Source: Rickettsiales bacterium
GTDB taxonomy: Bacteria; Pseudomonadota; Alphaproteobacteria; Rickettsiales; UBA1997
Direction of reading: 5' to 3'
DNA length: 40,125 nucleotides
Assembly: GCA_032119875.1 (NCBI GenBank)
Contig: JAUMFK010000005.1
Span: forward strand, 1 to 40,125
Positions 1 to 34,731 of the stretch are shown one piece after another (position 1 is the first letter of the stretch; each line of letters opens with the position of its first letter). The position numbers and the translations under genes are program-made. The notes under the pieces are model-generated. The model saw only the letters and a list, made by a program, of their open reading frames with translations. It did not search any database and was not told the DNA's origin.

Positions 1-501
1 AGAGAGCTAGATCTTGTTTTAGGGCAATCTTTTTTATTTAGCAATAAAGAGCAAGATATTAAAATAAGAGGTTTTAACAACAGTAATAAATCTAATATTG
101 TCGGACAAATTGGTATGGCAAAAAATAAATATTTTAATTTTACTTATAATTTTCAACTGCAAGAATCTAATTTAAGAAACGATGTAAATCAGCTTAATAC
201 TTATATCAATTATAAAAAATTTTTCTTAAATAATGAATTTTTATTAATTCGCAAAACTATAACTAATCAAAATAGAATCTCGCAATTTAATACTAATTTA
301 GGTTTTTCGCAAAAAAAATGGCAGTATCAAGTTAATTTTATACAAGATCTTGTTCAAAGAAGAATAATACAAAGAGGATTTAGCATTATTAATAAAGGTT
401 GTTGTGTTGATTTTGGCTTTTCTGTTTCAGAAGTGAATCAGAGTAATTTAATAAAACCGCAGCGAACTTTTAATCTTAATATTGCTTTTAAAAATTTATA
501 A
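1..501 (+). CDS. lptD: LptD/OstA-like outer-membrane LPS-assembly protein, C-terminal fragment (5' end lies outside the window)
   Basis: Frame 1 is open from base 1 to the TAA at 499-501, so tracked ORF 115..501 is only the tail of a longer CDS. Composition is N/Y/F/Q-rich and beta-strand-like. An adjacent Cys-Cys pair ('NKGCCVDFGFSV') lies near the C-terminus, as I recall for LptD. Confidence 0.5.
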   Translation, partial: RELDLVLGQSFLFSNKEQDIKIRGFNNSNKSNIVGQIGMAKNKYFNFTYNFQLQESNLRNDVNQLNTYINYKKFFLNNEFLLIRKTITNQNRISQFNTNLGFSQKKWQYQVNFIQDLVQRRIIQRGFSIINKGCCVDFGFSVSEVNQSNLIKPQRTFNLNIAFKNL

Positions 502-2663: not shown

Positions 2664-4135
2664 TCTTTTTTTATAAAGTATTATTTTTAATCTGTTTAAC
2701 TGTTTTTCGTTTTAATTTCGCTTTTTGTCAAGAAAATAATAAAATTGAAAACAATAAATTAAGCACATCAGAAGAATTACCAAATAAATCTCAAATAATA
2801 TTTGGTTTTGCCGAATTAATTGAAACTTTACTTCCTGCTGTTGCTAATATTTCTGCTGTGCAAGGCTCTAAAAATCAACATTCCACAGTGCTTGATAGTA
2901 ATATGTTAGGTAGTTTTCCACCTACTCCAATTTTTGAAGAATTAAAAAAGCAACTCGATCAACAAATTACCGATAAAAAAAAGATAATTTCAATCGGTTC
3001 TGGTTTTTTAATTTCAAAAGATGGCTACATTGCCACTAATTACCATGTGATAGAAGATGCTTTTGAAATAAATGTTAGTCTACACGATAAATCTACTTAT
3101 AAAGCTAGTTTGGTTGCCTTCGATAAAAAATCTGATCTAGCTTTGTTAAAAATTGCCTCTAATAAAGAGCTAAAATTTGCTCGATTTGGCGATTCTTCTA
3201 GAATGAAAATTGGTGATTGGCTTATTGCTATTGGCAATCCTTATGGTTTTGGTAGCTCGGTTTCGCTTGGTATTTTATCTGCACGTGGGCGAGATGTTGG
3301 CAATTTGCAAACCGATGAATATTTACAAACCGATGCCTCTATTAATAAAGGCAATTCTGGAGGCCCTTTATTTAATAGTAAGGGCGAAGTTGTTGGTATT
3401 AGCACTTCTATTTTTTCACCTTCTGGCGGTAATGTTGGCATTGCTTTTGCCACACCTTCTAACAATGCTTTTCAAATTTTAAAACAATTAAAAGAGCAAG
3501 GTGAGGTAGTGAGAGGTTGGATTGGGGTTATGGTGCAAGATTTAAGCCAAGATTTGGCTAATTCTATTAAGTTAAATTCTTTAAAGGGTGCTTTTGTGAG
3601 TGATATTACTAAAAATGGCCCTGCAGATAAGGCAGGAATTATTCCTTCTGATGTTATTTTGCAGTTTGATGATCAAGAAATCACCGACACTAAAACTTTG
3701 CCAAAAGTAGTTAATAAATTACCAGTTGGTAAAAATGTTAAAGTAGTAGTGTTTCGTTATGGAAAAACTCAAACTTTAACTTTAACTATCGAAAAAAATC
3801 TTGCTGAAAATAATAAAAATACTAGCAAAACAAGTGCAATAAAATCAATAACTATTGGCAAGTTGCTGGGTATTAGTTTTGCCGAAGAAAAAATAACTAA
3901 TAAATCTGGTATCGATAATTATTTGATAGTGAACGGAGTTGACTCTCGCTACGATGCTTATTATAAAGGAATTGCTCTTGGCGATATTGTGGTGAGTGTT
4001 AATCAGCAAATTGTTACTAATTTTGCTCAAATGCAAAAAATAATTAAAAAAGCCCAAGAAAGTGAAAAAAACATCACTTTATTGTTAAAAAGAGAAAATA
4101 ATTTGTTACCAATTGTAATTTCTTTATCAAAATAA
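2660..4135 (+). CDS. degP: DegP/HtrA-family periplasmic serine protease with PDZ domains
   Basis: Signal-like N-terminus. Catalytic contexts are 'TNYHVIE' (His), 'DLALLK' (Asp) and 'GNSGGPLF' (Ser). Two PDZ-like segments are present. ATGA overlap with the hflC stop (2660-2663). Confidence 0.85.
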   Translation: MIFFYKVLFLICLTVFRFNFAFCQENNKIENNKLSTSEELPNKSQIIFGFAELIETLLPAVANISAVQGSKNQHSTVLDSNMLGSFPPTPIFEELKKQLDQQITDKKKIISIGSGFLISKDGYIATNYHVIEDAFEINVSLHDKSTYKASLVAFDKKSDLALLKIASNKELKFARFGDSSRMKIGDWLIAIGNPYGFGSSVSLGILSARGRDVGNLQTDEYLQTDASINKGNSGGPLFNSKGEVVGISTSIFSPSGGNVGIAFATPSNNAFQILKQLKEQGEVVRGWIGVMVQDLSQDLANSIKLNSLKGAFVSDITKNGPADKAGIIPSDVILQFDDQEITDTKTLPKVVNKLPVGKNVKVVVFRYGKTQTLTLTIEKNLAENNKNTSKTSAIKSITIGKLLGISFAEEKITNKSGIDNYLIVNGVDSRYDAYYKGIALGDIVVSVNQQIVTNFAQMQKIIKKAQESEKNITLLLKRENNLLPIVISLSK

Positions 4136-4180: not shown

Positions 4181-4209
4181 AAACAAATTTGGAATTCAAC
4201 ACTGTCATT
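4180..4209 (+). repeat. 30-nt motif, copy 1 (overlaps the stop codon of the giant gene)
   Basis: 'aaaacaaatttggaattcaacactgtcatt' matches 25/30 with copy 2 at 34702-34731. Confidence 0.55.
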
Positions 4210-7200
4210 CTTGAATGCACCCCATAGGATCTATATTTATATTATAGCCGTTTGAATTAGTATTCCAGCAGTTATATGCACCAGAACACATACCAGGACC
4301 GTTGAAACAACCCCAGTAATTAGTTGTGCAAGGCACATTAGGAGAAAAATAATAAACATAACTTAAATTATTTAGATTAGGAACTGTTGCTGGCAATCCG
4401 ACATATCCAGTTATTTGATTTACATTGCAACTATTCCATCTGCAATTTGCGCTCCAAGTTCCATTTGCCTGACAAACTGGATTAGATCCCGGATTGCTCG
4501 AACCATAACCAGAACTACCATTGCAAATTGCTGTGTTGCCATATACTCCTTCAAGAGAAGAATAATTACTGTTAGCAAGAGTGCCACAACGATTTATATT
4601 ACAACTGCCATTCCAGCTTCCGTTATTGCAAGTAGGATTAGTTGGTGTAATGCTAGAGCTATAACCAGTGTTACAAGTTGCGGTTTCGCCACTGAAATAA
4701 AATATTTTACCTCCATGGTTGGCATTTGAAATGTTAGAGGCAGAGCAACCGCTGGCAATATTCCATTTTGCTTTAAGGTAATTTTCGACTGCTGTTCTTT
4801 GAGTATCGGTAAGTGCTTGTTTATAAAGAATAACTTCGGCTATTTTGCCGTTTAAACTCCAAGCGATATCTAATTTTAGTTTATCTGAAGCATCTCCATC
4901 TGAAATAGTGTCAGATCCTGGTGTTTGTATTAATGATTGTGAATTTTGATAAATATATAAATTGTTAACATCTTTTTTAAGTGATACAATGATCGGATTA
5001 TATGTTGGGCTATATATGCCAATTCTAGAGCTGTTATAATTGCAACATGACCCAAAATCAAAGTATAAATTACCGCCCCAATATGCAGAAAATAAAAATC
5101 TTTGACTAAGTTTATTACCATGAAACACCACAGATCCAGAGTCTGTTATGGTGTCTACTTTTTGCACAACAAAAAGAGTGGCGGTATTTTTTGCAGATCC
5201 AACATTACCAAGTAGATTATTAATGTTTATTGCACCACGATCAAGATATACATCAGAAGATAACCAATCATTGCCATCTAATTGCAAAGTAGGATAACCA
5301 TTGATACCACTTGATGAATATCGTGGTTGATTAGCTGATAATGTTTGATTTACCTCAATTGCACTACCGCCTAAAGCATCGGGAGATTGACTTTTCCATT
5401 TAGAAATTGCGGCCCCATTTGCAGGAGCAGAACTGCCTCCAAAAGCCGCAATTGGATTATCTTTGGTTTCAAGCCATAGCGATGGAGTGAGTTGCTGTGG
5501 AAAATTAGCGGTAAGATTAGTGATAGATGACCAATTAGAGTTATCTGCACTTTCAAAAAAATTAAAAACAGCTCCGCCACCGTTTTCATAATACCATATA
5601 TCAACTGATGCCACATCTCCGATATTTAAATAAACTGGGCTAGATGAGTTTCTTAATTCATATCCTCTATCACCCCACCAAGAAAAAACTGTATTTCCAT
5701 TGATTGTAATTTGCACTCCATCATCTGTTCCTGCATTAAAATAATGATTTCCTGTTCGGGTTGCTTTATAATAACCAGTAAAATGAATCATCACATTATC
5801 GCTTCTGCCTGTATCTAATACATTGCCACTTCCCCAATTGTTAAGCATAGTTGTGATAATACCAGAGGTTAATTTAGTGCCAGAAGATGTGCTTGGAGAT
5901 GGTCCAGAAGAATATGAAAATGTTTCGTATTGTAAAGATGGAGAGATTGAAACATTAGCGGTAAGATTAGCGGTAGGTGACCAATTAGAATTATCTGCAC
6001 TTTCGTAAAATGCAAAATAAGCTCCGCCACCGTTTTGATAATACCATATATCAACTGGCACCACATCGCCGATATTTAAATAAATCGGGCTAGATGGAGC
6101 GCTAAATCCTTCTGGTCTATCGAACCAATCATTAATGATTAACTGATTATTAACAACAATTCTTACTCCATCATCTGTTGTTGCACCAAAATAATGGTTT
6201 CCTGTTCGGGTTGCTTTATAATAACCAGTAAAATGAATTACCACATTACTGGTTCTGCCTGTATCTAAAATAAAGTTTCCTGACCAATTATAAACCATAT
6301 TTGTGGTAATGCCAGAGGTGAGTCTACTGCCAAGCGAATATGTATTAGGACTCGATCCTAAAGATGCAAATGTTTCATAGTATAATCCCGATAATACAGC
6401 AGAAACATTAGAAGAAACATTAGGATAGCAACCGCTTAATGCAAGAGTGCCGTTGTTGCAAGTATATTGTGGGGCTCCTGCATAACCAGTGTTGCAATAA
6501 ACACCTGCAGCAGAGCTTGATGTTGTGTTGTGAATAAGTGATAAAGAAGTGCCAGAATATACTTTGTAAGATCCCCAATTAGTGATAGAGCCATCAGATT
6601 TTAAAACAACATTGCAGTTACTATTGCAATCGCTAGAAGATGAAATTGTGGCAGTAGTTGAGCTACCGCTTGTGTTATTGCAAGTATAAGTTGCAGTGGC
6701 GGTGCCGCTATAACCAGCAGCACAAGATAAACCTATTGCTTGCGGAGTTGATCCTGTGTAGTTATAGGTAAAGACACTTGGTAAAGTATAGCCAGCAGGT
6801 ATTACACTTGGGGCAATGCAGGTGTTGATGGCACAACTTCCGACAGTAATATTTGTGGTGCCAGAATTTGTGCAAAGAGCAGTGCCAGAGCCAGTTGTGG
6901 TTAAAGAATAACCAGTGCCACACGATAAACCAGAAATAGTAGTTGGTAATATTTGACCTGTTGTAATGGAATTTATTTTTGATGTTGTGGCACCTGCTCC
7001 AAAACTACCGCTTAATGATGCAGTGCAAGTATTGGCAGTGCAACCGCTTAATGTTGCTTGTGTTGACGATCCTACACTGCCAGAAAAACATGTATAAACA
7101 GGAGTGCCAGTATAGCCAGTAGCACAAGATGCTCCTGTAATTGGTTGCGAAGTTGCGGTATAATTAACATTTGCAGGCAGATTGCTATAGCCAGTAGTTG

Positions 7201-10200
7201 CAGGAACTGTGCAAGTGTTGATGGCACAACTTCCGACAGTAATATTTGTGGTAGGATTTGTGCAAATAGCAGTGCCAGAGCCAGTCCAAGTTTTGCTATA
7301 ACCAGTGCCACACAATAATGAGTTTGCAAGAGTTGTATTGGTTGATGCTAAACTAGTTGCTGTGGTTATAGATGTTGATGTTACGGCACCTGTTCCAAAA
7401 CTACCGCTTAATGATGCAGTGCAAGTGTTGGCAGTGCAGTTTCCGTTAATGGTTGCAGTTGAGCCATATCTAGTGCAGTTAACGGTAATAGTTCCGCTAT
7501 ATCCAGTATTGCAAGTAAGTGATTGATTATGGGTAAAAGATCCTGCAACACCTGTGTAGCCTGTGGCACTAGTTGTGCCATTGCATACTTTTGGTAAACT
7601 CCATTTTTCGGCTAAATAATTTTGTATGCCATTGATTTGTGCTTGATTAAGTGCATTGTTGTATATTAGCAGTTCAGCTATGTGTCCGCTATATGGTTCG
7701 GCATTGTTAAATTTTCTACCAACAACAAAATATGTATTGCCAGTTGATAATGATGATAAATCTTGTGAATTTGCGTTTGGAGCAAGATTGTTTGGAGAAG
7801 GTGAATTATTATAAAAAGAGAATGGAAGAGAAATTGTTTTATTAACTACAATTGCGGTGATGTATGGGTTGTTATTGGTTATTGATGGATAGCCGCTAGT
7901 ATTATCTAATCTATCTATATTTTGGCCACTAAAATTTGGATTACTGTTAACAATCATCATACCTGCTCTTGTGCCTGTTGTGAGTGTAGAAGAAGATGAG
8001 TTCTGCTCCATGATTACATAATATCCAGATGTTGCTGTTGGTTTATAAACTGCAATGAGAGTGTATTGCCCAGAGCCATTGGTTATTGGCATTGTATTTG
8101 TTATATCAGTGAATAATGAATTATTTGTTGTAAGAGTTCCATCAAAACTTAATGAAGGTTTGCTGATACCATCAAAACCAGTGGCATTATAGGTTGGTTG
8201 ATTAGCTGATGTTGATTGTTTTACTATTGTAGCACTGCCATTAGCACTAGTTACTTTACTACTCCAAGCCGAAACTTTATTGCTAGAATCTTTGGTGATG
8301 GTATCAAGATCTGAAGCATCAAGCCATAAAGTGAGTTGATTTCCTGTAATAGTAATATCGGTAGGTAAGCAAGTGCCAATACGATAAGTGGTGCTAGAAT
8401 TTGGGCAGTTGATATTATTGCTTTCGGTATAACAAACTTGATATGGATCATTAGTATTAATACAGGCAGGTATGGTATAAATAGGGTTTGGAGCAGTGAG
8501 AGGCCCTGCACCATCGGGATCGTTGCAAGTTAAAGTGCCATAGCTATTGCCTGTGCTGATGTTATTAATAGTGTTGCCAGCAAATAAAGCTACACTACAA
8601 CTATTAGCAGAGCAAGAGCCAACATTTACTTGTGTGTTTAAATCAATACACAATGCAGTTGTGCCACCTCTGGTAAGATTGCCATAACCTTTATTGCATA
8701 AAAAATGATTTGAAAAAGGTTCGGCAAAAATTGCATTGGTTTGACCTGTTGCTATAGTTTTAGCAATGCCGTTATATGTGCCGTTGCTTATAGAAGCATT
8801 ACAAATATTGGCATTGCAGTTGCTGGCATTGATTGTGGCATCGATTGGGTCATTGTTAGAAGATGTGTTATCGCAAGTGTAATTTACAGTGGCGGTGCCA
8901 TTATAACCAGTGGTGCAAGATGCTGATATAGATCCCGATCCATAATTAACAGGGTTGGTAGAATAGCTATAGCCAGTTGTTGCAGGAACTGTGCAGGTAT
9001 TGATGGTGCAACCGCTAGCAGATTGAATTGTAGCGGAGGTTGGATTGCTGTTTGTTTTATTGCAAAAATAATTTATTACAGGAGTTCCTCTATAACCAGT
9101 AGCACAAGATGCTCCTGTAATTTCTCGTGAAGTAACTAACCCTGTATAACTATATGTAAAACCACTTGGTAAAGTATAGCCAGTAGGTATTACACTTGGG
9201 GCAGTGCAGATGTTAAGAGTGCAACTTGCACTCCAGATTCCGTTATTGCAAGTAGGATTAGTTGGAGCAGTGCTAGAGCTATAACCAGTGTTACAAGTTG
9301 CAGTTTCGCCACTCATGTAGATTGTTTTGACTCCATGGTTGCCATTTAAAAGAGTAGAGGCAGAGCAACCGCTGGCAATATTCCATTTTGCTTTAAGATA
9401 GTTTTCAACTGCTGTTATTTGAGGATCGGTAAGGGCTTCTTTATAAACAAGAACTTCGGATATTTTGCCGTCAAAAACACTAGCAATATTTAAAGCTGTT
9501 GACACAGTGGGATCGATTGTAATAGTTGAAGTTGCAGCATTTGCTGTTGATTGCACTAATAATTGTGAATTTTGATAAGCATATAAATTGTTACCTTGTT
9601 TTTTGACTGATAAAATTGTTGGTTGATTTGTGAAGGCAGTTTTGTTAATTGAAGAAGAAGATGAATCACAACAAACTCCAAAATCAAAAAATAAACTATT
9701 GCTATCATATGCCCTAAGTGCAAATTGTTGATCAGAATAATATAATTTAAATGATTTAGAATTGGTGTTATTATTGACTTGTTGCACAACAAAAAGAGTG
9801 GCAGTATTTTTTGAGGCAAGATTACCAAGTAATTTATCAACACTAATATTGAGATTAGATAGATTATCACTACTATCAAATTGTAATGTAGGGAAAGAAT
9901 TGATACCATTTGATATATAGACTGGTCTGTTAGTTTCTGATGCTTGATTTACCTCAATTGCATTACCGCCCAAAGCATCGGGAGATTGGCTTTTCCACCT
10001 ATCAATTAAAGCCCTATTTGCAGGAGCGGCACTGCCTCCAAAAGCCGCCAGTGGATTATCTTTGGCTTCAAGCCATAGTGATGGAGTGAGTTGAGTTGAG
10101 CCAGTGTTAGGGTAACAACCGCTTAATGCAAGAAAATTATTTTGTCCTTGCTCTGTTTTACAAGTGTATTTTGGAGTGCCAGCATAACCAGTATTGCAAC

Positions 10201-13200
10201 TAATGTTTGAATTTATGGTAGGTATATTTATACGCAATAATGTAACATTTACTGTTGCTTTGTAAGCCTGCCAATTTGGTATAGTGCCAAGATTAACAGG
10301 GCAACCCATGAAACCAGGGCAATATCCTGGAAGACCACCCAAGCTATTACCGCAATCTACTTTACTTACACCTATATTTTGTTGTAATATTCCGCTAGGA
10401 CATTGAATTATCTTTTTTAAATAAGCATAATCAGCATTATGTAAAATATGTTCGCCTTCTATTATAGTGCCACCAGAAATACTGGCAGTAGCATTGCAAG
10501 TTTTACCAGAGCCACCACCACCGCCACCTGCCACTACAAGTGGTAAAATTGTTTTTGTAGCTGGTTTTACCAAAGCAATCACACTTGCCTCACCGCCGCC
10601 GCCTGCATAGCCAAATTCTTTTTTATAAACATTATAATCTTGGCTTTCACGATGCGAGCCCCCAGCAAAAAATCTATAAGGATTAACCTCGGTAGAATTT
10701 TTTCCACCAGCTCCCACAATAATTTTCAAGGTATAAAAATCGGGGCTTGTATAATAAGCTGAATTAGCACTAATTTTAAAACCATTTGCATTTGTAATAG
10801 TAAGTTCTGTAGCATTTCTACCATCGATATTATAATCTAGCGATGCAGGAGTATAATTATATGAAGCACCGCCACCTCCACCAATAATTGTGATTTTAGT
10901 AATTTTGCTATCTTTTTGAATTGTTAGATGATAAACTCCTTGATTATCATATGTTAATGATTGCCCATCTAAAAACTCAATAACAACTTTACCTTGCTTG
11001 CCATTTTCAGGAATTTGTGCTGGTTTTGTTAGATCTAATTCAGCCTGCTGACCGCCACAACCATTTGTATCGCTTGGGCAAATGATTGGCGTTTCTATTT
11101 TTGTGAGGGGAGTAGCACCAACATCAAAACAATTATCGCAAACTTCATTAATACCGTTAGTGCCTTGCAAATTATATTCTGCGATACGACCAGAACTTTG
11201 TGATGGATCATAAGAAGCATAATATTCTCCTCCAGTTGCTTTGTTTATTCTATATTTTTTAGGATAACTTTTATTATTATTTACTACCCTTGCCGCTTTT
11301 TGTAAAGAACAAGCATTTTGAGTATTAAATTTTACAAAACCAGATTGAGTAGCGGTAAACAAAACAAAAGGATGAACAGTGTATTTTAAGCCATTGCAGT
11401 TTACTGTTGTTTTTGTTGTTATTTTTAATGTTGTATTTGGATATATTATTAAATTGTCATTACCATCTTTTACAACAGGATAGTTTGATTTGTTAAAATC
11501 GGTAAGAGAAATATTAATCATACATGCAGCAGGAGTACCAACAGGAATAATAAGTTTTACATACAAAGGTATTAAAGTTGAATCATCTTTATATGGAGAT
11601 CCAGTAACATCATAGTTTGTTATTTTTTCTCTTAGTTTATCATATGTTAATGCAACAACATAATTACCCGAATCAGAAGTAAATGAAACATCTTGTGGTT
11701 CAGATGCAGTATTATTGCTAAAAACGAGTTGTTCTGTTTTTGGTGGCGAAACAGCGGCAACAACAACTCTTCTGGTATAGTTAGCAATTTTCACTTGCTC
11801 TTTTTCAGATTCGTATTTTGTTGTTATGTCAAATCTATTATCAGATTGATTCTTATATTGACATTGAAGAGGTGCAGAGGAAGTTTCGCAAGCAAAATCT
11901 GTTTGCGATATTGTTGTTTGTGGATGTATTTTTATATAACATGAATTTTGACATTGTTCATCATCATCAGATGGAACACCGGCAATGGCAGCTTTTTCTG
12001 AATTCTTAAGTGGGCGATAGAAGTTTATTTTAGTTCTATTAGGCTCAGAAACACTTGCAATGTCTAAAGAGACATTTGGTTTATATTGAGTTTTTTGTTT
12101 TAAAGACATAGTCTTTGATGTTGCACAATCCTCGCCGAGCAATGAAAAACCATAAATATGTTTATCAGGTAAAGAAGTGTTAGAAACAAGATGACAAAGA
12201 CTAGTGGTTGAGGTGCCTAAAGTAATCTCACCAGTTGCCTGAATTTCTACTTTTGAGCCAGCAGATATTTGCAAACCGCCACTTGAATTTGGAGAAAATT
12301 TTAAAGTAGTAGACTTCCAAGGTGGCATAAATTTATCTTGCCAATCTATATCTTCTACCGATGGTATCAAAAAACAATTTTCTCCTGATTGTTCGCACAA
12401 AGCTTTGATACTTAAAATTTGTGGAGGAGAATTAATATCTTCGTAAATAAAAGATTGGCTATTAGTAATTTGTTTTACTTTGATTTTATATTCATTACTC
12501 GAACTAACTATTTCTAAATTAGAATTAGTGCCAAAATGATGTTGAGTATCGGTTGTTATTGTTCTGTCGTTAGTATTAATTCCGCCCTGCTGCTTGATTT
12601 TAACATAATCAAATATCGCTATTGCCTTAGCATCATTTATTACTGTTGATGTTGAGGTTGGTGCTGTTATAAAAAAATTTTTAAATTCAGCCTTATCAAT
12701 AAGATCTGATACCTTAATTTGACAAGTAAATGTATCTCTTGATAAATTACAACTATCAAAATTATCTATCAATATTTGTTTTTTTAATATTTTGCCTTCT
12801 CCTTCATCAATGGCAATGGCAATTGCCAGAGCTAATTTTTTTGTGTAAGCAGGATTTTGCAATTTACTAAATATCGTCTTTAATTCACTACCGCTATCAT
12901 CCCAACTAAAAGTGTAGATAAAATCGTCTTGTACAACATCCTTTTTAGCATTAAGAGAAGAGTTGACAATAAATAAATTACCATCTAGGTCATGTTTTAA
13001 AATAGATTTGCCAGTGTAAGGGTTAAATATATCGTATTCATCAAAAGAATCACGAGCAGAAGAAATAGCGACATCTGTTGCTCCATTTTTTATTTGTAAT
13101 CGGCTTGCAACATGGCTACAAGCTCTATGCTTTCTGCATCGTTGCACACAACTATCTATACATTGATTTTGAACATCAACAAGATTTAAAGGATTACTTG

Positions 13201-13813
13201 GTGGTGTGGGTGGTTGTTGCCAAGTAGAAGAACTAGAAAACAAATACTCATTAGTTGCTAGGATAATTGGTTGAGCTGCTTCAGATTTAGTTTTAAAGTT
13301 ACAGCCTTTATTTTTATAGTTTGTATCATTAGGTTTTACACAGCTTAATTCATCTAAGGTAAGTTCATTTGCAATATCATTATTCAAAAAACGACAATTT
13401 TTATTTTGTCCTTGTATATTTATATAGCCATCGTAAGATTCTTCGCAATGTTCTACTCCTTGAGCTCCGTTTAAACAATAAAGTAAATCTTTGTTAAAAC
13501 TAGAAAAACCACCTGTTTCTAATATTTTATATGAACATTCATCGGTTTGATCGTTTGCAGATCTAAACGATAATACATCAAATCTTTCGATATCTTCAAA
13601 ACCAAAATCATCTGCCTCAATGCAAATACCTTTTCTATTATCGCAAGCACACAAAATAAAAAGGCAAACAAGCAAAAATATTTTTAATGAATAAATTTTA
13701 ATATTATTAAACAAGATACCAAATTGATTATTGTTGCAGAAAGTGTTTTTATAATAAAATTTTATCGTAATTATAAAAAAGTAATTTAGCAAGAGAAATT
13801 TGCTAGTTTTCAT
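4205..13813 (-). CDS. Giant (3,202 aa) mosaic secreted or lipoprotein-like adhesin candidate: glycine-rich block, 3 LamG-like, 2 PA14 and about 15 CCP/Sushi-like four-Cys modules
   Basis: Uninterrupted 9,609-nt ORF. Its ATG overlaps the znuC stop by 11 nt. Domain motifs were read from the translation (see sub-features). Opposite-strand ORFs inside it are short and low-complexity. Confidence 0.85.
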   Translation of the reverse strand: MKTSKFLLLNYFFIITIKFYYKNTFCNNNQFGILFNNIKIYSLKIFLLVCLFILCACDNRKGICIEADDFGFEDIERFDVLSFRSANDQTDECSYKILETGGFSSFNKDLLYCLNGAQGVEHCEESYDGYINIQGQNKNCRFLNNDIANELTLDELSCVKPNDTNYKNKGCNFKTKSEAAQPIILATNEYLFSSSSTWQQPPTPPSNPLNLVDVQNQCIDSCVQRCRKHRACSHVASRLQIKNGATDVAISSARDSFDEYDIFNPYTGKSILKHDLDGNLFIVNSSLNAKKDVVQDDFIYTFSWDDSGSELKTIFSKLQNPAYTKKLALAIAIAIDEGEGKILKKQILIDNFDSCNLSRDTFTCQIKVSDLIDKAEFKNFFITAPTSTSTVINDAKAIAIFDYVKIKQQGGINTNDRTITTDTQHHFGTNSNLEIVSSSNEYKIKVKQITNSQSFIYEDINSPPQILSIKALCEQSGENCFLIPSVEDIDWQDKFMPPWKSTTLKFSPNSSGGLQISAGSKVEIQATGEITLGTSTTSLCHLVSNTSLPDKHIYGFSLLGEDCATSKTMSLKQKTQYKPNVSLDIASVSEPNRTKINFYRPLKNSEKAAIAGVPSDDDEQCQNSCYIKIHPQTTISQTDFACETSSAPLQCQYKNQSDNRFDITTKYESEKEQVKIANYTRRVVVAAVSPPKTEQLVFSNNTASEPQDVSFTSDSGNYVVALTYDKLREKITNYDVTGSPYKDDSTLIPLYVKLIIPVGTPAACMINISLTDFNKSNYPVVKDGNDNLIIYPNTTLKITTKTTVNCNGLKYTVHPFVLFTATQSGFVKFNTQNACSLQKAARVVNNNKSYPKKYRINKATGGEYYASYDPSQSSGRIAEYNLQGTNGINEVCDNCFDVGATPLTKIETPIICPSDTNGCGGQQAELDLTKPAQIPENGKQGKVVIEFLDGQSLTYDNQGVYHLTIQKDSKITKITIIGGGGGASYNYTPASLDYNIDGRNATELTITNANGFKISANSAYYTSPDFYTLKIIVGAGGKNSTEVNPYRFFAGGSHRESQDYNVYKKEFGYAGGGGEASVIALVKPATKTILPLVVAGGGGGGSGKTCNATASISGGTIIEGEHILHNADYAYLKKIIQCPSGILQQNIGVSKVDCGNSLGGLPGYCPGFMGCPVNLGTIPNWQAYKATVNVTLLRINIPTINSNISCNTGYAGTPKYTCKTEQGQNNFLALSGCYPNTGSTQLTPSLWLEAKDNPLAAFGGSAAPANRALIDRWKSQSPDALGGNAIEVNQASETNRPVYISNGINSFPTLQFDSSDNLSNLNISVDKLLGNLASKNTATLFVVQQVNNNTNSKSFKLYYSDQQFALRAYDSNSLFFDFGVCCDSSSSSINKTAFTNQPTILSVKKQGNNLYAYQNSQLLVQSTANAATSTITIDPTVSTALNIASVFDGKISEVLVYKEALTDPQITAVENYLKAKWNIASGCSASTLLNGNHGVKTIYMSGETATCNTGYSSSTAPTNPTCNNGIWSASCTLNICTAPSVIPTGYTLPSGFTYSYTGLVTSREITGASCATGYRGTPVINYFCNKTNSNPTSATIQSASGCTINTCTVPATTGYSYSTNPVNYGSGSISASCTTGYNGTATVNYTCDNTSSNNDPIDATINASNCNANICNASISNGTYNGIAKTIATGQTNAIFAEPFSNHFLCNKGYGNLTRGGTTALCIDLNTQVNVGSCSANSCSVALFAGNTINNISTGNSYGTLTCNDPDGAGPLTAPNPIYTIPACINTNDPYQVCYTESNNINCPNSSTTYRIGTCLPTDITITGNQLTLWLDASDLDTITKDSSNKVSAWSSKVTSANGSATIVKQSTSANQPTYNATGFDGISKPSLSFDGTLTTNNSLFTDITNTMPITNGSGQYTLIAVYKPTATSGYYVIMEQNSSSSTLTTGTRAGMMIVNSNPNFSGQNIDRLDNTSGYPSITNNNPYITAIVVNKTISLPFSFYNNSPSPNNLAPNANSQDLSSLSTGNTYFVVGRKFNNAEPYSGHIAELLIYNNALNQAQINGIQNYLAEKWSLPKVCNGTTSATGYTGVAGSFTHNQSLTCNTGYSGTITVNCTRYGSTATINGNCTANTCTASLSGSFGTGAVTSTSITTATSLASTNTTLANSLLCGTGYSKTWTGSGTAICTNPTTNITVGSCAINTCTVPATTGYSNLPANVNYTATSQPITGASCATGYTGTPVYTCFSGSVGSSTQATLSGCTANTCTASLSGSFGAGATTSKINSITTGQILPTTISGLSCGTGYSLTTTGSGTALCTNSGTTNITVGSCAINTCIAPSVIPAGYTLPSVFTYNYTGSTPQAIGLSCAAGYSGTATATYTCNNTSGSSTTATISSSSDCNSNCNVVLKSDGSITNWGSYKVYSGTSLSLIHNTTSSSAAGVYCNTGYAGAPQYTCNNGTLALSGCYPNVSSNVSAVLSGLYYETFASLGSSPNTYSLGSRLTSGITTNMVYNWSGNFILDTGRTSNVVIHFTGYYKATRTGNHYFGATTDDGVRIVVNNQLIINDWFDRPEGFSAPSSPIYLNIGDVVPVDIWYYQNGGGAYFAFYESADNSNWSPTANLTANVSISPSLQYETFSYSSGPSPSTSSGTKLTSGIITTMLNNWGSGNVLDTGRSDNVMIHFTGYYKATRTGNHYFNAGTDDGVQITINGNTVFSWWGDRGYELRNSSSPVYLNIGDVASVDIWYYENGGGAVFNFFESADNSNWSSITNLTANFPQQLTPSLWLETKDNPIAAFGGSSAPANGAAISKWKSQSPDALGGSAIEVNQTLSANQPRYSSSGINGYPTLQLDGNDWLSSDVYLDRGAININNLLGNVGSAKNTATLFVVQKVDTITDSGSVVFHGNKLSQRFLFSAYWGGNLYFDFGSCCNYNSSRIGIYSPTYNPIIVSLKKDVNNLYIYQNSQSLIQTPGSDTISDGDASDKLKLDIAWSLNGKIAEVILYKQALTDTQRTAVENYLKAKWNIASGCSASNISNANHGGKIFYFSGETATCNTGYSSSITPTNPTCNNGSWNGSCNINRCGTLANSNYSSLEGVYGNTAICNGSSGYGSSNPGSNPVCQANGTWSANCRWNSCNVNQITGYVGLPATVPNLNNLSYVYYFSPNVPCTTNYWGCFNGPGMCSGAYNCWNTNSNGYNINIDPMGCIQE
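4208..4756 (-). repeat. C-terminal array of about 3 CCP/Sushi-like modules (giant protein)
   Basis: 'ATCNTGYSSSITPTNPTCNNGSWNGSC' and 'AICNGSSGYGSSNPGSNPVCQANGTWSANC', followed by a Cys/Trp/Asn-rich tail ending 'MGCIQE'. Confidence 0.5.
4757..5502 (-). other. LamG-like module 3 of the giant protein (close paralogue of module 1)
   Basis: Runs from 'LTPSLWLETKDNPIAAFGGSSAPANGAAISKWKSQSPDALGGSAIEVNQ' to 'GKIAEVILYKQALTDTQRTAVENYLKAKWNI'. The DNA is highly similar to 9377-10110. Confidence 0.7.
5503..5935 (-). other. PA14-like module 2 of the giant protein (tandem with module 1)
   Basis: 'LQYETF..MIHFTGYYKATRTGNHYFNAGTDDGVQITINGNTVFSWW..VYLNIGDVASVDIWYYENGGGAVFNF'. Confidence 0.65.
5936..6388 (-). 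other. PA14-like module 1 of the giant protein
   Basis: 'GLYYETF..VIHFTGYYKATRTGNHYFGATTDDGVRIVVNNQLIINDW..IYLNIGDVVPVDIWYYQNGGGAYFAF'. This shows the PA14 pattern G.YY, G.Y.F, DDG, Y.enGG.a. Confidence 0.65.
6389..7597 (-). repeat. Array of about 6 four-Cys CCP/Sushi-like modules (giant protein), including a 396-nt tandem duplication (7043-7438 / about 6647-7042)
   Basis: 'LTCNTGYSGTITVNCTRYG', 'ASCATGYTGTPVYTCFSG..LSGC', 'LSCAAGYSGTATATYTCNNT' and 'VYCNTGYAGAPQYTCNNGTLALSGC'. An identical 33-mer lies at 7394-7426 and 6998-7030. An identical 38-mer lies at 7215-7252 and 6832-6869. Confidence 0.5.
7598..8345 (-). other. LamG-like module 2 of the giant protein
   Basis: Runs from 'LTLWLDASDLDTITKDSSNKVSAWSSKV..NQPTYNATGFDGISKPSLSFDG' to 'GHIAELLIYNNALNQAQINGIQNYLAEKWSL'. 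Confidence 0.7.
8346..9376 (-). repeat. Array of about 5 four-Cys CCP/Sushi-like modules (giant protein)
   Basis: Modules of 55-85 aa. Examples: 'ATCNTGYSSSTAPTNPTCNNGIWSASC', 'ASCATGYRGTPVINYFCNKT..SASGC', 'ASCTTGYNGTATVNYTCDNT..NASNC'. Confidence 0.5.
9377..10110 (-). other. LamG-like (concanavalin-A-like jelly roll) module 1 of the giant protein
   Basis: Runs from 'LTPSLWLEAKDNP..IDRWKSQSPDALGGNAIEVNQ..NRPVY..NGINSFPTLQFD' to 'GKISEVLVYKEALTDPQITAVENYLKAKWNI'. This is the pattern I associate with bacterial Laminin_G_3-type modules. Confidence 0.7.
10450..10900 (-). other. Glycine-rich domain of the giant protein (four strand + poly-Gly units)
   Basis: 'ITIIGGGGGASYNY', 'KIIVGAGGKNS', 'FGYAGGGGEASVIALV' and 'LVVAGGGGGGSGKTC', spaced about 35-50 aa apart. 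Confidence 0.5.
13643..13813 (-). other. N-terminal export signal of the giant protein with a lipobox-like 'LFILCAC'
   Basis: Two hydrophobic stretches in aa 1-57: 'FLLLNYFFIITI' and 'IFLLVCLFILCAC'. These are followed by polar 'DNRKG'. L-x-[A/G]-C resembles a lipoprotein box, but Cys at position -2 is atypical. Confidence 0.4.
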
Positions 13814-19186: not shown

Positions 19187-19263
19187 TGGTGGGTGGTAGA
19201 AGATTTGAACTTCCGACCTTTACGATGTCAACGTAACACTCTAACCAACTGAGCTAACCACCC
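19187..19263 (-). tRNA. tRNA-Val (anticodon GAC), CCA encoded
   Basis: Hand-folded reverse complement: GGGTGGT-TA-GCTC-AGTTGGTTA-GAGT-G-TTACG-TTGACAT-CGTAA-AGGTC-GGAAG-TTCAAAT-CTTCT-ACCACCC-A-CCA. 7-bp acceptor stem, U33, GAC anticodon, A37, TTCAAAT T-loop. Confidence 0.85.
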
Positions 19264-30777: not shown

Positions 30778-31521
30778 TTATTTTTTTTGCACAACAACAT
30801 AACCACGATATTTTTTGCCATCCAAGGTGTTCATGGCAGAAACAATATCGGCAACCGCAACCCATTGCCACTGATTTTTATGCAAAGCAACATCTAAAAC
30901 CAAAACTTCATCGGTATCTTGCTGATAGGCAGCTATCAAAGACATATGACCTCTGGTTTTATTTTTTAAAACTAAACCATCAAAATTGATGACTAAAAAA
31001 GAGTTGCTATCGGTTGTTACTGTTTTTACAATTTCAAGAAATTTATTAGCATCAGAATTATTTTGATAATAAATTTTAGTTTTTAACGAATAAGCTTGTT
31101 CTAAAATTTTAGCAAAATCGCCCAAGCTCATACCGGAATCGTATTCATTGTTTTTATTAGGTTTTTTAAATTCAATGATATCTTGATGTTTGATTTGATT
31201 GGTTTTATCATTAAAAAAATTATCTTGACTAAACAAAGGAAAAGCAACAACTTCGCCATTAGGTTTGGTTATTTGATGATTAATATTACTAGGAATATCG
31301 GGGTAATTAAAAACATTTAACAATGTGGCAGCAACCGCAACGGCACAATAAATAGGGTTATTTTGTGACTGATAAAAATTTACTAGTTGGTAAAAATCAT
31401 TTTTATATTGACTAGTTTCAAATTTTTTAATACCATTAGCAGAATTCCAAACTTCGGAAGCGAAAGAATTTTTAAAACTAAATAAAACCACAAAAAACAA
31501 AATTTTTATAGCATGTTTCAT
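30778..31521 (-). CDS. Signal-peptide-bearing phytochelatin-synthase-like (papain-fold, PF05023-like) protein
   Basis: Signal 'MKHAIKILFFVVLFSFKNSFA|SE'. Cys context 'QNNPIYCAVAVAATLLN'. 'RGHMSLIAAYQQDTDEVLVLDVA' places His and Asp 18 residues apart, as in the PCS Cys-His-Asp triad. C-terminal 'AMNTLDGKKYRGY'. Confidence 0.65.
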   Translation of the reverse strand: MKHAIKILFFVVLFSFKNSFASEVWNSANGIKKFETSQYKNDFYQLVNFYQSQNNPIYCAVAVAATLLNVFNYPDIPSNINHQITKPNGEVVAFPLFSQDNFFNDKTNQIKHQDIIEFKKPNKNNEYDSGMSLGDFAKILEQAYSLKTKIYYQNNSDANKFLEIVKTVTTDSNSFLVINFDGLVLKNKTRGHMSLIAAYQQDTDEVLVLDVALHKNQWQWVAVADIVSAMNTLDGKKYRGYVVVQKK

Positions 31522-32521: not shown

Positions 32522-34624
32522 TTAAAAACTACCTAACCAACTTAATTTTATAGCCAGTGGTGAGCCGGGTTGTAAATTGTTATTATTGTGAGCGGTAATT
32601 GTGTAATGCTTATTTAAGGCATTTTCAATATTTAATTGCAATTGATGATTTTCGTTAAGTTGATAATAAGTTGCTAAATCAAGCCTAGTAAAACCTTTTA
32701 ATTTTACAGTGTTGTCGGCTCCTGCAAATTGCGAACCTTGTTTTATCACTCCAGCTGCTGCACTAAATTTTTTGGTTAATTGATATTTGTTCCATACAGC
32801 AAGTATTTGCGAAGGAAACAAGGCAACCAAAGCTCCTTTATGAGCAGAAGAAGTGCTTGAAACCACTCTTGCTTGTTGCCAACTTTGCGAAACAATGGTT
32901 TGCCAGTTTTTGTTAATATTGCCATTTAGCGAAAGTTCTAATCCTTTGGTGGTGGTTTGCCCTGTGGCAATCATCATGCCAGCATTGTTAGGATCATTTG
33001 CCCTAGTATTTTTACGATCTAACTGATAAATTGCCGAAGTAAAATTTAGATTTTTATTGAGATCGAATTTTGCTCCAAGTTCGTAGTTGTGTAGTTTTTC
33101 TGGTTTGAGCATTTTTGCCACAGAATCTAGGCTAGAAAATTGATCGCCAGCACTTGGTAAATAACTAGTTGAATAGCTAGTATAAATAGAAAGTTCTTCT
33201 TGTGGCTTAAAAACTATTCCAAATCTGGGTGAAATTAAGTTATCAGCCCTGCTAAATTGCTGATTGTTGACTTGGTTATTAGTTTTGGCTAAAAATCGAT
33301 CAAAACGAATACCTGCCAATATTTGCCAATATTGATTGAGATCGATTTTATTTTGAGCATAAATTCCTAAAATTTGGTTGTTTGATTGACTATTAATATC
33401 GGAGTTGGCAAATTTATAGGTAATGGCGGTATTACTGAGGGGATTATTAATATTTAAGCTAGAAATAGTATTTGTGTTATTAAAAAAGCCAGTTTTTCTT
33501 ATGTTTTCGGTTTGCTGTTTTGTAATTTCAAAACCTAATAAAGCGGTGTTTAAAACATTAAAAGCTTTAAATTTATAAATTGCATCGGTTTGATTAGTTA
33601 TGGTGTTGCGATTTTGCTTGATGTTATAGGCAGAAATATTAAAATTACCAAAATTATTTATAGAGCTAGAAGCATAAACATTTTGATAAAATTTATTGCC
33701 ATGGCTAAATCTGGTGTGGTTTTTGATTTGCAAATTTTGATTAGCATCATATAAAACCAAGGCAGAAATACTGTTAATTTCGGCATCGGAGGTGTTTTCA
33801 TTAAAGTTGCCAACAAATAATTTTGGGTTAACTTTTAAAGCCAAATTATTTTGCGAGGGCAAGCCTCTGTCGTTAAAGCGATTATCATAAAAATATTCGT
33901 AGCCAAGCCTAATTTCGGTTTTTTGATTAGGATTAAAAGTAAAAGTAGGATTAATACCATGGCGATTTAAATAGCCATAATTACGAAAAGTATTAGATTT
34001 TTCATAGATCGAGTTAACACGAAAAGCAGATGTTTTGCTGATTTTATCGGCTAAATCTAGGCTTATTCTTTGCTGATTAAACGAACCAACAGTAGTGGTA
34101 AAATTTCGTTTTTGCTTACCATCGGCATATTTACTCACTCGGTTCACTACTCCGCCACTACCACCTCTGCCAAAAGCCAAAGCATTAGGGCCTTTTAAAA
34201 ATTCAATATTTTCGATATTATAAAAATCGCGAAAATATTGCAGATCGTCTCTGGCTTGATCAACAAAAAAATCGGCCGTGGTGTTATTGCCCCTGATGTT
34301 TATTTGATCTCTATTGCTTTCGCCTTGTAAAACCGATATCCCTGGCACATATTGTGAAGCAGAAGCTAAATTGGTAATTTGCTGATCGGCAATTTGTGTG
34401 GCAGAAACCACCGAAATGGCTTGCGGAGTATCAAGCAACGGCATATTAATTTTAGTTGCCGAATTGCTTTTGGAAATAAAATAGCCAGAATCTGCTTTTT
34501 CACTTTCGCCAATTACATTAACAGTGGGGAGTTTTTTGAGATTTTTTGTAGATTGAGCAAAAGTTTGGCAAGAAACAAAAAACAACAAAAATAATAAGAA
34601 AGGAATTTGTTTGATATTAAGCAT
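32522..34624 (-). CDS. TonB-dependent outer-membrane receptor (siderophore-receptor-like)
   Basis: Signal 'FVSCQTFAQS', TonB-box-like 'LPTVNVIGE', plug 'FGRGGSGGVVNRVSK'. Long beta-barrel ending in a terminal Phe ('LSWLGSF'). Confidence 0.85.
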   Translation of the reverse strand: MLNIKQIPFLLFLLFFVSCQTFAQSTKNLKKLPTVNVIGESEKADSGYFISKSNSATKINMPLLDTPQAISVVSATQIADQQITNLASASQYVPGISVLQGESNRDQINIRGNNTTADFFVDQARDDLQYFRDFYNIENIEFLKGPNALAFGRGGSGGVVNRVSKYADGKQKRNFTTTVGSFNQQRISLDLADKISKTSAFRVNSIYEKSNTFRNYGYLNRHGINPTFTFNPNQKTEIRLGYEYFYDNRFNDRGLPSQNNLALKVNPKLFVGNFNENTSDAEINSISALVLYDANQNLQIKNHTRFSHGNKFYQNVYASSSINNFGNFNISAYNIKQNRNTITNQTDAIYKFKAFNVLNTALLGFEITKQQTENIRKTGFFNNTNTISSLNINNPLSNTAITYKFANSDINSQSNNQILGIYAQNKIDLNQYWQILAGIRFDRFLAKTNNQVNNQQFSRADNLISPRFGIVFKPQEELSIYTSYSTSYLPSAGDQFSSLDSVAKMLKPEKLHNYELGAKFDLNKNLNFTSAIYQLDRKNTRANDPNNAGMMIATGQTTTKGLELSLNGNINKNWQTIVSQSWQQARVVSSTSSAHKGALVALFPSQILAVWNKYQLTKKFSAAAGVIKQGSQFAGADNTVKLKGFTRLDLATYYQLNENHQLQLNIENALNKHYTITAHNNNNLQPGSPLAIKLSWLGSF

Positions 34625-34701: not shown

Positions 34702-34731
34702 AAAACAAATTTGCGATGCAACAGTGCCATT
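34702..34731 (+). repeat. 30-nt motif, copy 2 (overlaps the stop codon of the 473-aa orphan gene)
   Basis: 'aaaacaaatttgcgatgcaacagtgccatt'. Confidence 0.6.

Follow-up and report, generated by a model that had tools for sequence, protein, structure and literature searches.

A giant lipobox-bearing protein with CCP/Sushi-like, LamG and PA14 modules from a Rickettsiales bacterium: a candidate surface adhesin

Introduction

Giant modular adhesins are well known as a kind. Among them, the RTX adhesins of the LapA/MpIBP type, such as MpIBP of Marinomonas primoryensis and Lap of Marinobacter hydrocarbonoclasticus, can be compared with the protein considered here, which is encoded by a 9,609-nt gene in a 40,125-nt stretch of DNA from a Rickettsiales bacterium (GenBank assembly GCA_032119875.1, contig JAUMFK010000005.1, positions 1 to 40,125; this whole stretch is called the window below). 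The RTX adhesins have an N-terminal anchor and small beta modules as extenders, and they bind sugars through a distal Ca2+-dependent PA14 domain (PMC5550230, PMC6650083, PMC8092209). In MhPA14 sugar binding takes place via a Ca2+ ion, which is held by Asp136-Asp137, the D-cis-D pair, and by Asp181, Gln182, Gly183 and Ala185 (PMC6650083). The giant protein of the window shares with these adhesins its size, its modularity, a cell-proximal N-terminus and a long array of small extender modules with ligand-binding modules in the distal part, and its PA14 domains match the Lap and MpIBP structures and keep the D-D motif. In contrast to them it contains neither RTX nonapeptides nor a C-terminal type I secretion signal, it has a lipobox anchor in place of the N-terminal retention plug, and its extenders are CCP-like modules instead of Ca2+-stiffened BIg repeats. 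It is an analogue of the RTX adhesins in functional layout, built on a different chassis, and not a member of their family.

A second likeness is to the Sushi/CCP/SCR arrays of factor H, DAF/CD55, C4BP, CR1/CR2 and the poxviral proteins VCP and SPICE, in which modules with four Cys and a C-x-x-G-Y sequence follow one another in tandem on short linkers; the Trp before the fourth Cys that is typical of Sushi PF00084 is found in some of the window modules. Unlike those arrays, the present one is bacterial and lipid-anchored, is mostly devoid of the Trp, is rich in Thr, Ser, Gly and Asn, and consists of modules that score below the Pfam threshold. The pullulanase PulA of Klebsiella likewise joins an N-terminal lipobox with Asp at position +2 to a large carbohydrate-interacting protein, one that needs a special pathway to depart from the inner membrane; it differs in that the two proteins have no sequence similarity and that no type II secretion genes occur in the 40 kb of the window. 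The PA14 adhesins of fungi (Epa of Candida glabrata and Flo5 of yeast), which are cited in PMC6650083, carry a D-cis-D PA14 lectin on a long Ser/Thr-rich stalk. They are eukaryotic, with a C-terminal glycosylphosphatidylinositol anchor and the PA14 domain at the N-terminal tip, whereas here the anchor is N-terminal and the PA14 domains are internal.

Every fold identified in the giant protein is one that was known already. What is new is, first, that a lipobox, an orphan base of 860 residues, a glycine-rich domain, a CCP stalk, LamG and PA14 are combined in one protein; second, that a bacterial protein is built from repeated Sushi-type modules; and third, that the family is restricted to a handful of uncultured genomes and its members are unnamed or 'hypothetical'. 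The NCBI record of the window protein, on a contig of exactly 40,125 bp to which the window therefore corresponds in full, gives no protein name, the few named relatives carry the label 'hypothetical protein', and nothing specific was found in the literature on bacterial Sushi domains or on giant Rickettsiales proteins. The explanation preferred below is that the protein is an N-terminally lipid-anchored, fibrillar surface lectin adhesin of an environmental, Rickettsiales-affiliated and probably host-associated bacterium, a proposal for which we judge the chances to be evenly balanced.

The giant reading frame

The maximal open reading frame (ORF) extends over 4205..13813 of the minus strand and comprises 3,202 codons and a stop codon (4205-4207). 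It takes up 24% of the window, in which no other ORF exceeds 859 aa, and the absence of a stop across 3,202 codons has a probability of about 1e-111 at the base composition of the window. An earlier interpretation, made from the letters and translations of the same DNA (the sequence-only reading), had described a single uninterrupted ORF filling about a quarter of the window, and this description holds. The GC content at third codon positions (GC3) is 0.21, compared with 0.17-0.27 in the neighbouring housekeeping genes. The overall GC content of the gene is higher, owing to the second codon positions, and this is accounted for by a product rich in Gly, Ala, Thr, Ser and Cys.

Frameshifts or collapsed repeats had been named as findings that would undo this description. 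The repeats within the gene proved to be diverged: the block of LamG-1 and CCP modules and that of LamG-3 and CCP modules are 74-85% identical in DNA, and the tandem PA14 copies, detected by Tandem Repeats Finder with a period of 450 nt, share 77% of their nucleotides. Internal DNA identity reaches at most 85% for stretches longer than 100 nt, and values of 94-98% are confined to stretches of 43-64 nt. No sign of repeat collapse or chimeric assembly is present in the gene, which is intact, real and native in its codon usage. An independent assembly, L003, encodes a protein 96% identical to that of the window, with the reading frame maintained for 1,432 codons. That the gene as a whole was recently acquired by horizontal transfer was rejected on account of its neighbour-like GC3 and of the syntenic locus in relatives. 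Scans for promoters and terminators at both ends of the gene gave signals at or below the level of shuffled sequences.

Translation start and lipoprotein signal

The maximal ORF opens with an ATG, at 13813, that lies inside the 3' end of znuC, with an overlap of 11 nt. The 33-codon extension that this ATG would add (13712-13813) is not conserved as coding sequence in the relatives L001 and L002, where the upstream DNA is similar to that of the window, yet out of frame, and where the Leu codon homologous to a TTG of the window is preceded, 7 codons upstream, by a stop in the same frame. The gene calls of two further relatives, P0002 and P0003, begin at the position homologous to this TTG, and the homologues start with MF(N/Y)(N/C)IK. 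Because the extension is not conserved, because stops precede the Leu codon in L001 and L002, and because the calls of P0002 and P0003 begin there, the TTG is preferred and is probably the real start of the gene (Table 1).

With the TTG start the precursor begins with MFNNIKIYSLKIFLLVCLFILCA followed by CDNRKG. The Cys that would carry the lipid is number 57 in the ORF (13643-13645), or Cys24 counted from the TTG, and precedes DNRK. The signal was evaluated with a PS51257-type rule, which asks for K/R in the n-region, an uncharged h-region, the pattern [LIVMFWSTAG]2-[LIVMFYSTAGCQ]-[AGS]-C and a Cys within the first 35 residues. Applied from the TTG, the rule identified Cys24 in 5/5 family members tested; applied from the ATG it identified no signal, the Cys then lying at position 57. 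The lipobox is accordingly described as a predicted signal peptidase II lipoprotein signal. The hydrophobic N-terminus ending in LFILCAC, to which the sequence-only reading had drawn attention, is thus retained as far as the lipobox is concerned, and its first hydrophobic segment is probably untranslated. Annotation pipelines that choose the longest ORF would mis-start the gene and lose the lipoprotein signal. The residue at position +2 is Asp in every family member. Exactly 100 Cys follow the lipid-modified one, an even number, so that all of them could be paired.

PA14, LamG and CCP/Sushi-like modules

The assignment of two PA14 domains, already made from the translation, is solid as judged by profile and structure-database matches. 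With Pfam PA14 (PF07691), for which the cutoff is 24, two stretches of the protein gave 70.5 bits (E 1.8e-19), and matches at E 1.6e-10 to 1e-7 were obtained in the PDB to the tandem PA14 of RsgI3, to the PA14 of Marinobacter Lap (6M8M) and to chains entitled 'Antifreeze protein', which we take to be MpIBP. The tandem PA14 of RsgI3, an anti-sigma factor, and the PA14 modules of Lap and MpIBP, which bind sugars, are the best solved relatives. In the HMMER alignment a TDDG sequence of the window falls on D136-D137 of MhPA14 in both copies, and D181-Q182-G183-G184 of MhPA14 is aligned to E-N-G-G in copy 2 and to Q-N-G-G in copy 1. A lectin-type Ca2+/sugar site is plausibly retained, best in copy 2.

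Three LamG modules of two subtypes are likely. LamG-3 is 56% identical to LamG-1 (BLASTP E 2e-90). The whole protein scored 27.8 bits with Laminin_G_3 (PF13385) against a cutoff of 27.6, and single modules scored 22.6 and 24.4 bits, below that cutoff. In the family, 5/6 modules of the LamG type matched Laminin_G_3 (E down to 3.9e-5), and they matched no other family consistently. The modules have in common a C-terminal motif, G-x-I-(A/S)-E-(L/V)-(L/I)-(I/V/L)-Y-x-x-A-L-(T/N)...NYL..KW, which a PDB profile search aligned, without significance (E 0.51), to the LamG-like module of the arabinanase 5HON; the PDB searches with single LamG sequences and with the profile returned non-significant matches alone. 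The three Laminin_G_3 domains that had been expected have moderate support: the score of the whole protein is marginal, the matches within the family agree, and single modules lie below the threshold.

The Cys pattern of the distal part resolves into 15 four-Cys modules of 49-77 residues, arranged as 1+5+6+3; parsing of the Cys thereby reproduced both the module order and the count proposed in the sequence-only reading. The modules stand in tandem, with 3-4 residues between Cys4 of one and Cys1 of the next. A G-Y pair occurs two residues after Cys2 (C-x-x-G-Y) in 12/15 window modules. When 48 distinct modules drawn from five members of the family are compared, none of the four Cys varies, and the conservation of G and Y is 90% or higher. 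Trp is found between Cys3 and Cys4 in 4/15 window modules; the remaining ones are divergent paralogues rich in Thr, Ser, Gly and Asn with the same Cys framework. The protein terminates in a 6-Cys CCP-like module ending in GCIQE.

Relationship of these modules to Sushi domains was approached in several ways. Pfam Sushi (PF00084) gave no match on the whole window protein or on long segments of it. The pair of modules 12 and 13 scored 17.6 bits (E 0.0054), below the cutoff of 20.7 bits, and a module of the relative P0004, about 50% identical to window module 1, scored 25.8 bits (E 1.4e-5), above it. When all PDB sequences were queried with a profile built from the 48 modules, 36 matches were obtained at E <=10 (best E 0.016), 34 of which were CCP proteins, including vaccinia VCP, DAF, factor H, MASP-1, C4BP, beta2-GPI and a complement-receptor-related protein; the other two were a TetR-family regulator and an antibody Fab. 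An AlphaFold2 (AF2) model of module 1, made from an alignment of 38 paralogous modules, had a mean predicted local distance difference test score (pLDDT) of 95.8. When this 51-residue model was compared with the PDB by Foldseek, all 50 matches listed were CCP domains (TMq 0.38-0.59, best E 0.058). The same module profile returned zero matches among 5.8 billion clustered proteins and missed the family itself, an outcome that we ascribe to the prefilter and do not count as evidence.

Taken together, the PDB profile, the AF2/Foldseek comparison and the Pfam score of the orthologue, none of them decisive alone, make a CCP fold with probable Sushi homology, at least for the Trp-bearing subtype, the clear best reading of the sequences and the model. 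The CCP/Sushi-like label of the sequence-only reading is accordingly kept on the strength of profile, fold and orthologue, and fails at the Pfam threshold on the window protein itself.

The N-terminal region and the glycine-rich block

About 900 aa with a Cys-rich start had been set aside as containing no recognisable motif, and this was borne out: residues 58-921 have no match in Pfam, NCBIfam, PADLOC or the PDB. An exhaustive HMMER profile search of the N-terminal region against 1.84 billion representative proteins yielded 9 matches, all of them family members or fragments thereof. On these searches the first ~860 residues of the mature protein are a clade-restricted orphan. Polar motifs within it, QHHFGTNS, DKFMPPWK and GGLQISAGSK, are invariant in the family.

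The glycine-rich block that follows contains GGGGG runs at residues 978-982, 1071-1074 and 1096-1101. Its strand/Gly segments, IIGGGGGASY, KIIVGAGGKNSTE, FGYAGGGGEASV and VVAGGGGGGSGKTC, are highly conserved in the family. Gly_rich (PF12810), which had been anticipated for it, gave no match in Pfam. In 3/4 members Gly_rich_2 (PF21722) scored 13 bits (E about 0.1), below its cutoff of 24.3. No PDB relative was found with a single sequence or with a four-sequence profile, and the profile of the block matched one entry among the 5.8 billion proteins, a fragment of the family, with no relatives outside it. The block is real; its membership in the Gly_rich families is not supported.

Table 1. Features of the giant gene (window coordinates; residues numbered from the first codon of the maximal ORF)
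Feature	Residues	Coordinates	Strand	Remarks
Probable true start, TTG		13712..13714	-	Codon 34 of the maximal ORF; 3,169-aa precursor; based on homologue starts, upstream stops and the lipobox rule
Predicted lipoprotein signal peptide, MFNNIKIYSLKIFLLVCLFILCA before C		13643..13714	-	23 residues; PROSITE-type lipobox LCA before C; only strongly hydrophobic stretch of the protein
Orphan N-terminal region	58-921	11051..13642	-	Clade-restricted; 26 Cys; strain-variable patches
Glycine-rich domain	922-1170	10304..11050	-	Strands alternating with GGGGG runs, then a Cys-containing tail; invariant alignment columns
CCP/Sushi-like module 0	1171-1233	10115..10303	-	Four-Cys pattern
LamG-1	1234-1482	9368..10114	-	Laminin_G_3-like; Pfam E 1.3e-4, below threshold
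CCP/Sushi-like modules 1-5	1483-1815	8369..9367	-	Module 5 with 6 Cys; linkers of 4 residues; module 1 modelled
LamG-2	1816-2076	7586..8368	-	Laminin_G_3-like; Pfam E 3.6e-5 to 3.9e-5; second subtype, common to P0003 and L002
CCP/Sushi-like modules 6-11	2077-2462	6428..7585	-	Four-Cys pattern
Tandem PA14 x2	about 2463-2618, 2619-2770	5504..6427	-	Pfam; D-D(G) motif in both
LamG-3	2771-3022	4748..5503	-	LamG-1 paralogue; no direct Pfam match
CCP/Sushi-like modules 12-14	3023-3199	4217..4747	-	12 and 13 with Sushi-type Trp; 14 is the 6-Cys C-terminus

Relatives and strain variation

Only three other clusters among the 5.8 billion clustered proteins matched the giant protein: P0002 (1,945 aa), P0003 (2,053 aa) and P0004 (1,762 aa). 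Scans of genomes and metagenomes added L001, L002 (a 'Rickettsiales bacterium'), L003, L004 and L006; the last has 1,687 aa and is encoded on a contig of 297 kb. In the window the genes are ordered ftsW-gshA-nuoD-panC-znuC-giant gene. This order recurs in L001, as judged by the order and sizes of the ORFs, and in part in L003 and L004, so that the giant gene is native and vertically inherited in its lineage. The surroundings of the L006 gene are different and also of the housekeeping kind, and include DsbD and MltA. The DsbD-type thiol:disulfide interchange protein (L006 4166-5989) is encoded ~4 kb upstream of the Cys-rich orthologue, which may be a coincidence. The contig of L001 (CAMAWV010000003.1), which carries both the gene family and the synteny of the window, is entitled 'MAG: Rickettsia typhi' (MAG, metagenome-assembled genome); this species label is almost certainly a taxonomic mis-assignment.

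All members have the signal and the N-terminal ~1,100 residues in common, with 45-59% identity and hundreds of invariant columns. The distal array differs completely from one orthologue to the other, as do the C-terminal tips: it consists of CCP-like modules only in P0004 and L006, includes one LamG each in P0002, P0003 and L002, and contains three LamG and two PA14 in the window protein only. Four to five near-identical tandem copies of a ~65-residue CCP-like module are present in L002 705-6755 (residues about 1523-1786) and in L006 9932-14995, indicating recent amplification of modules. Such near-identical repeats are prone to errors of copy number in short-read assemblies.

The comparison with L003, whose N-terminal region is 95-96% identical to that of the window protein, revealed 59 non-synonymous and 14 synonymous differences and three indels of one or two codons over 1,432 aligned codons. 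The ratio of non-synonymous to synonymous rates (dN/dS) is about 1.2; that of the adjacent znuC is 0.12, a value calculated from 3 differences only. The replacements cluster at residues 153-165, 186-204 and 244-247 (window 13000-13360), in the Cys-rich start of the orphan region. Residues 100-299 show 25 non-synonymous to 1 synonymous difference (binomial p = 0.014 vs neutral, for a segment chosen post hoc). In the family alignment the variable patches fall on columns that are rich in indels and the least conserved. This pattern of replacements fits exposed loops under diversifying selection, though the changes are so few that relaxed constraint might account for it as well; it does argue that the orphan N-terminal region, too, faces something that selects for change.

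A diversity-generating retroelement was considered as the origin of the variable patches and was dropped, as no adenine-specific pattern was noticed among the substitutions listed, although no formal test was made. No reverse-transcriptase family was matched among the window ORFs scanned.

Neighbouring genes

The giant gene is surrounded by hflK, hflC, htrA, znuC, panC, nuoD, gshA and ftsW, htrA being convergent to it at a distance of 69 nt. Farther away the window contains a restriction-modification/defence block, fusA, rplT, nadA, a TonB-dependent receptor and a sigma-54 activator. Secretion genes were found neither in the 40-kb window, as had been noted for the flanks of the gene, nor near the L006 orthologue. 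Regular expressions and hydropathy detected no RTX nonapeptides (loosened GGxGxDxUx pattern), no LPXTG and no further transmembrane segments in the giant protein, and no autotransporter, type IX secretion (T9SS) or HemolysinCabind domain was matched in Pfam or NCBIfam, so that the sequence-only reading was also correct in listing an autotransporter barrel, RTX repeats, LPXTG and a T9SS domain as missing.

The region between ftsW and fusA contains a tRNA-Val(GAC) gene (19187-19263) and, after it, three minus-strand genes that extend to 24664. Their products are a protein of 859 aa weakly similar to the BPTD_3080 restriction endonuclease, a Bro-N protein matching the PADLOC candidate defence family PDC-S13 (E 9e-115) and an N6/N4 DNA methylase; the group looks like a small defence islet. 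A phytochelatin-synthase-like gene (30778-31521), which shares the window with gshA, the gene of the TonB-dependent receptor (32522-34624) and that of a sigma-54-dependent response regulator (36699-38141) were also identified. The presence of these three genes, unusual for strongly reduced Rickettsiaceae, suggests a less reduced, possibly facultative or extracellular lifestyle. Two ORFs, one of 473 aa at 34730-36151 (minus strand) and one of 128 aa at 115-501 (plus strand), have no Pfam match.

A proposed surface adhesin and its alternatives

If the protein is a lipid-anchored surface adhesin, translation from the TTG at 13714 would be followed by Sec export, cleavage by signal peptidase II at the observed motif and lipidation of Cys24, and the remaining 100 Cys would pair as disulfides within an oxidising compartment. 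The N-terminal ~1,100 residues, which are conserved and comprise the orphan region and the glycine-rich block, could then serve as the membrane-proximal base. The 15 CCP/Sushi-like modules, for which the fold is supported, would form with their short linkers an extended beads-on-a-string stalk, as in complement regulators, and the three LamG and two PA14 modules, set into this stalk toward its distal end, may have as ligands the glycans or proteins of a eukaryotic host, or those of some other surface. In the case of PA14, whose motif is conserved, binding would proceed through Ca2+ held by the D-cis-D pair. The observed reshuffling of the distal array on a base that is kept might serve to tune specificity among orthologues. 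The binding of a host surface or matrix by a symbiont, which the sequence-only reading had derived from the domain content, is still a putative function, which receives some support from the PA14 motif, the shuffling of the array and the clustered replacements.

Several observations weigh against the adhesin proposal, and localisation is its weakest link. In E. coli, Asp at position +2 of a lipoprotein causes retention in the inner membrane, and the Asp of the giant protein is conserved. No surface-export system, and no secretion gene, occurs in the available DNA of the window or around the L006 orthologue; the sequence-only reading had rightly pointed out that the sequence leaves the export route open, and this is the main weakness of the adhesin interpretation. 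The source of the gene is a metagenome-assembled contig. As to its modules, the Sushi and LamG scores of the window protein lie at or below threshold, and the Foldseek E-values for a model of 51 residues are not individually significant. The role proposed for the base finds no help in an AF2 model of residues 57-1170, which was calculated with 4 homologues and is unusable (mean pLDDT 34). Finally, strains as close as these may also show a dN/dS near 1 because constraint has been relaxed or because slightly deleterious changes are still segregating.

Some of these observations could also be explained by a periplasmic lipoprotein of the inner membrane, the modules of which bind peptidoglycan, lipopolysaccharide or periplasmic glycans of the cell itself and have a structural function or act as spacers of the envelope. 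Asp+2 is invariant in all members, surface-export machinery is not encoded nearby in the window or L006, and the neighbours include genes of envelope quality or synthesis (htrA, hflKC and ftsW in the window, MltA and DsbD in L006). We nevertheless regard this explanation as unlikely. An array of 3,100 residues with about 20 extended modules would, from the usual sizes of such modules, be far too long for the periplasm when stretched, and rapidly reshuffled distal parts and clustered strain replacements are typical of exposed proteins with external partners. Furthermore, outside Enterobacteria the +2 rule does not hold universally, and Asp+2 lipoproteins of the PulA type are exposed at the surface by way of the type II secretion system.

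Less probable still is an effector that is released or cleaved, or a delivery protein of the polymorphic kind, whose N-terminal region has the function, possibly an enzymatic or toxic one, and whose CCP/LamG/PA14 array only targets it to the host. The lipobox argues for a protein that stays tethered, and no catalytic or toxin family was matched in Pfam, NCBIfam, PADLOC or the PDB, even though the N-terminal 860 residues are the most conserved and orphan part and their invariant polar motifs could form an active site. The C-terminal tips of the orthologues do differ, as they would in polymorphic toxins; those, however, combine a variable C-terminal toxin with an adjacent immunity gene, of which there is none here, the gene 69 nt away being the convergent htrA.

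That the CCP array mimics a regulator of complement or immunity, and binds complement-like or thioester proteins of the host as do poxviral VCP/SPICE and factor H, is very improbable. The closest matches of the modules in sequence and fold are indeed complement regulators, including vaccinia VCP, SPICE and MPXV B6, but the similarity is limited to the generic CCP scaffold (the Cys framework, G-Y and some Trp) and does not extend to C3b-binding surfaces. Most modules lack the Trp, are rich in Thr, Ser and Gly and resemble spacers, and the relatives stem from environmental metagenomes and MAGs, for which a protist would be a likelier host than an animal with complement. Least credible of all is an assembly artefact or decaying pseudogene, which the MAG-type contig, the internal repeats and a dN/dS of about 1 between close strains might suggest, but which is opposed by the stop-free frame, by the divergence of the repeats, by the in-frame L003 assembly and by the long-term conservation of the N-terminal half.

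It is tempting to go beyond the adhesin interpretation, tentatively and at the risk of being wrong, and to speculate that the family represents a new class of giant adhesin of one environmental Rickettsiales-like lineage. It would consist of an N-terminal lipid tether, in place of a type I or type V secretion system, a stalk of true homologues of eukaryotic Sushi/CCP modules that were probably captured from a eukaryotic host and amplified, and a base of ~860 residues, absent elsewhere from the databases searched, with a new fold that would act in surface export, anchoring or host contact and would be under patchy diversifying selection.

Significance

Little is known about the attachment to hosts of environmental, probably protist-associated bacteria related to Rickettsiales. 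For a compact genome, a gene that fills a quarter of its 40-kb contig is costly, and the product is presumably important. The orphan N-terminal domain with its strain-variable patches offers a concrete target for structure determination, and the PA14 and LamG modules can be tested on glycan arrays. If the giant protein is a surface adhesin, some route must carry a lipoprotein of 3,100 residues across the outer membrane; complement-type CCP arrays can then act as the stalks of bacterial proteins, and lectin modules of the kind found in RTX adhesins would have been recombined onto a lipid-anchored chassis.

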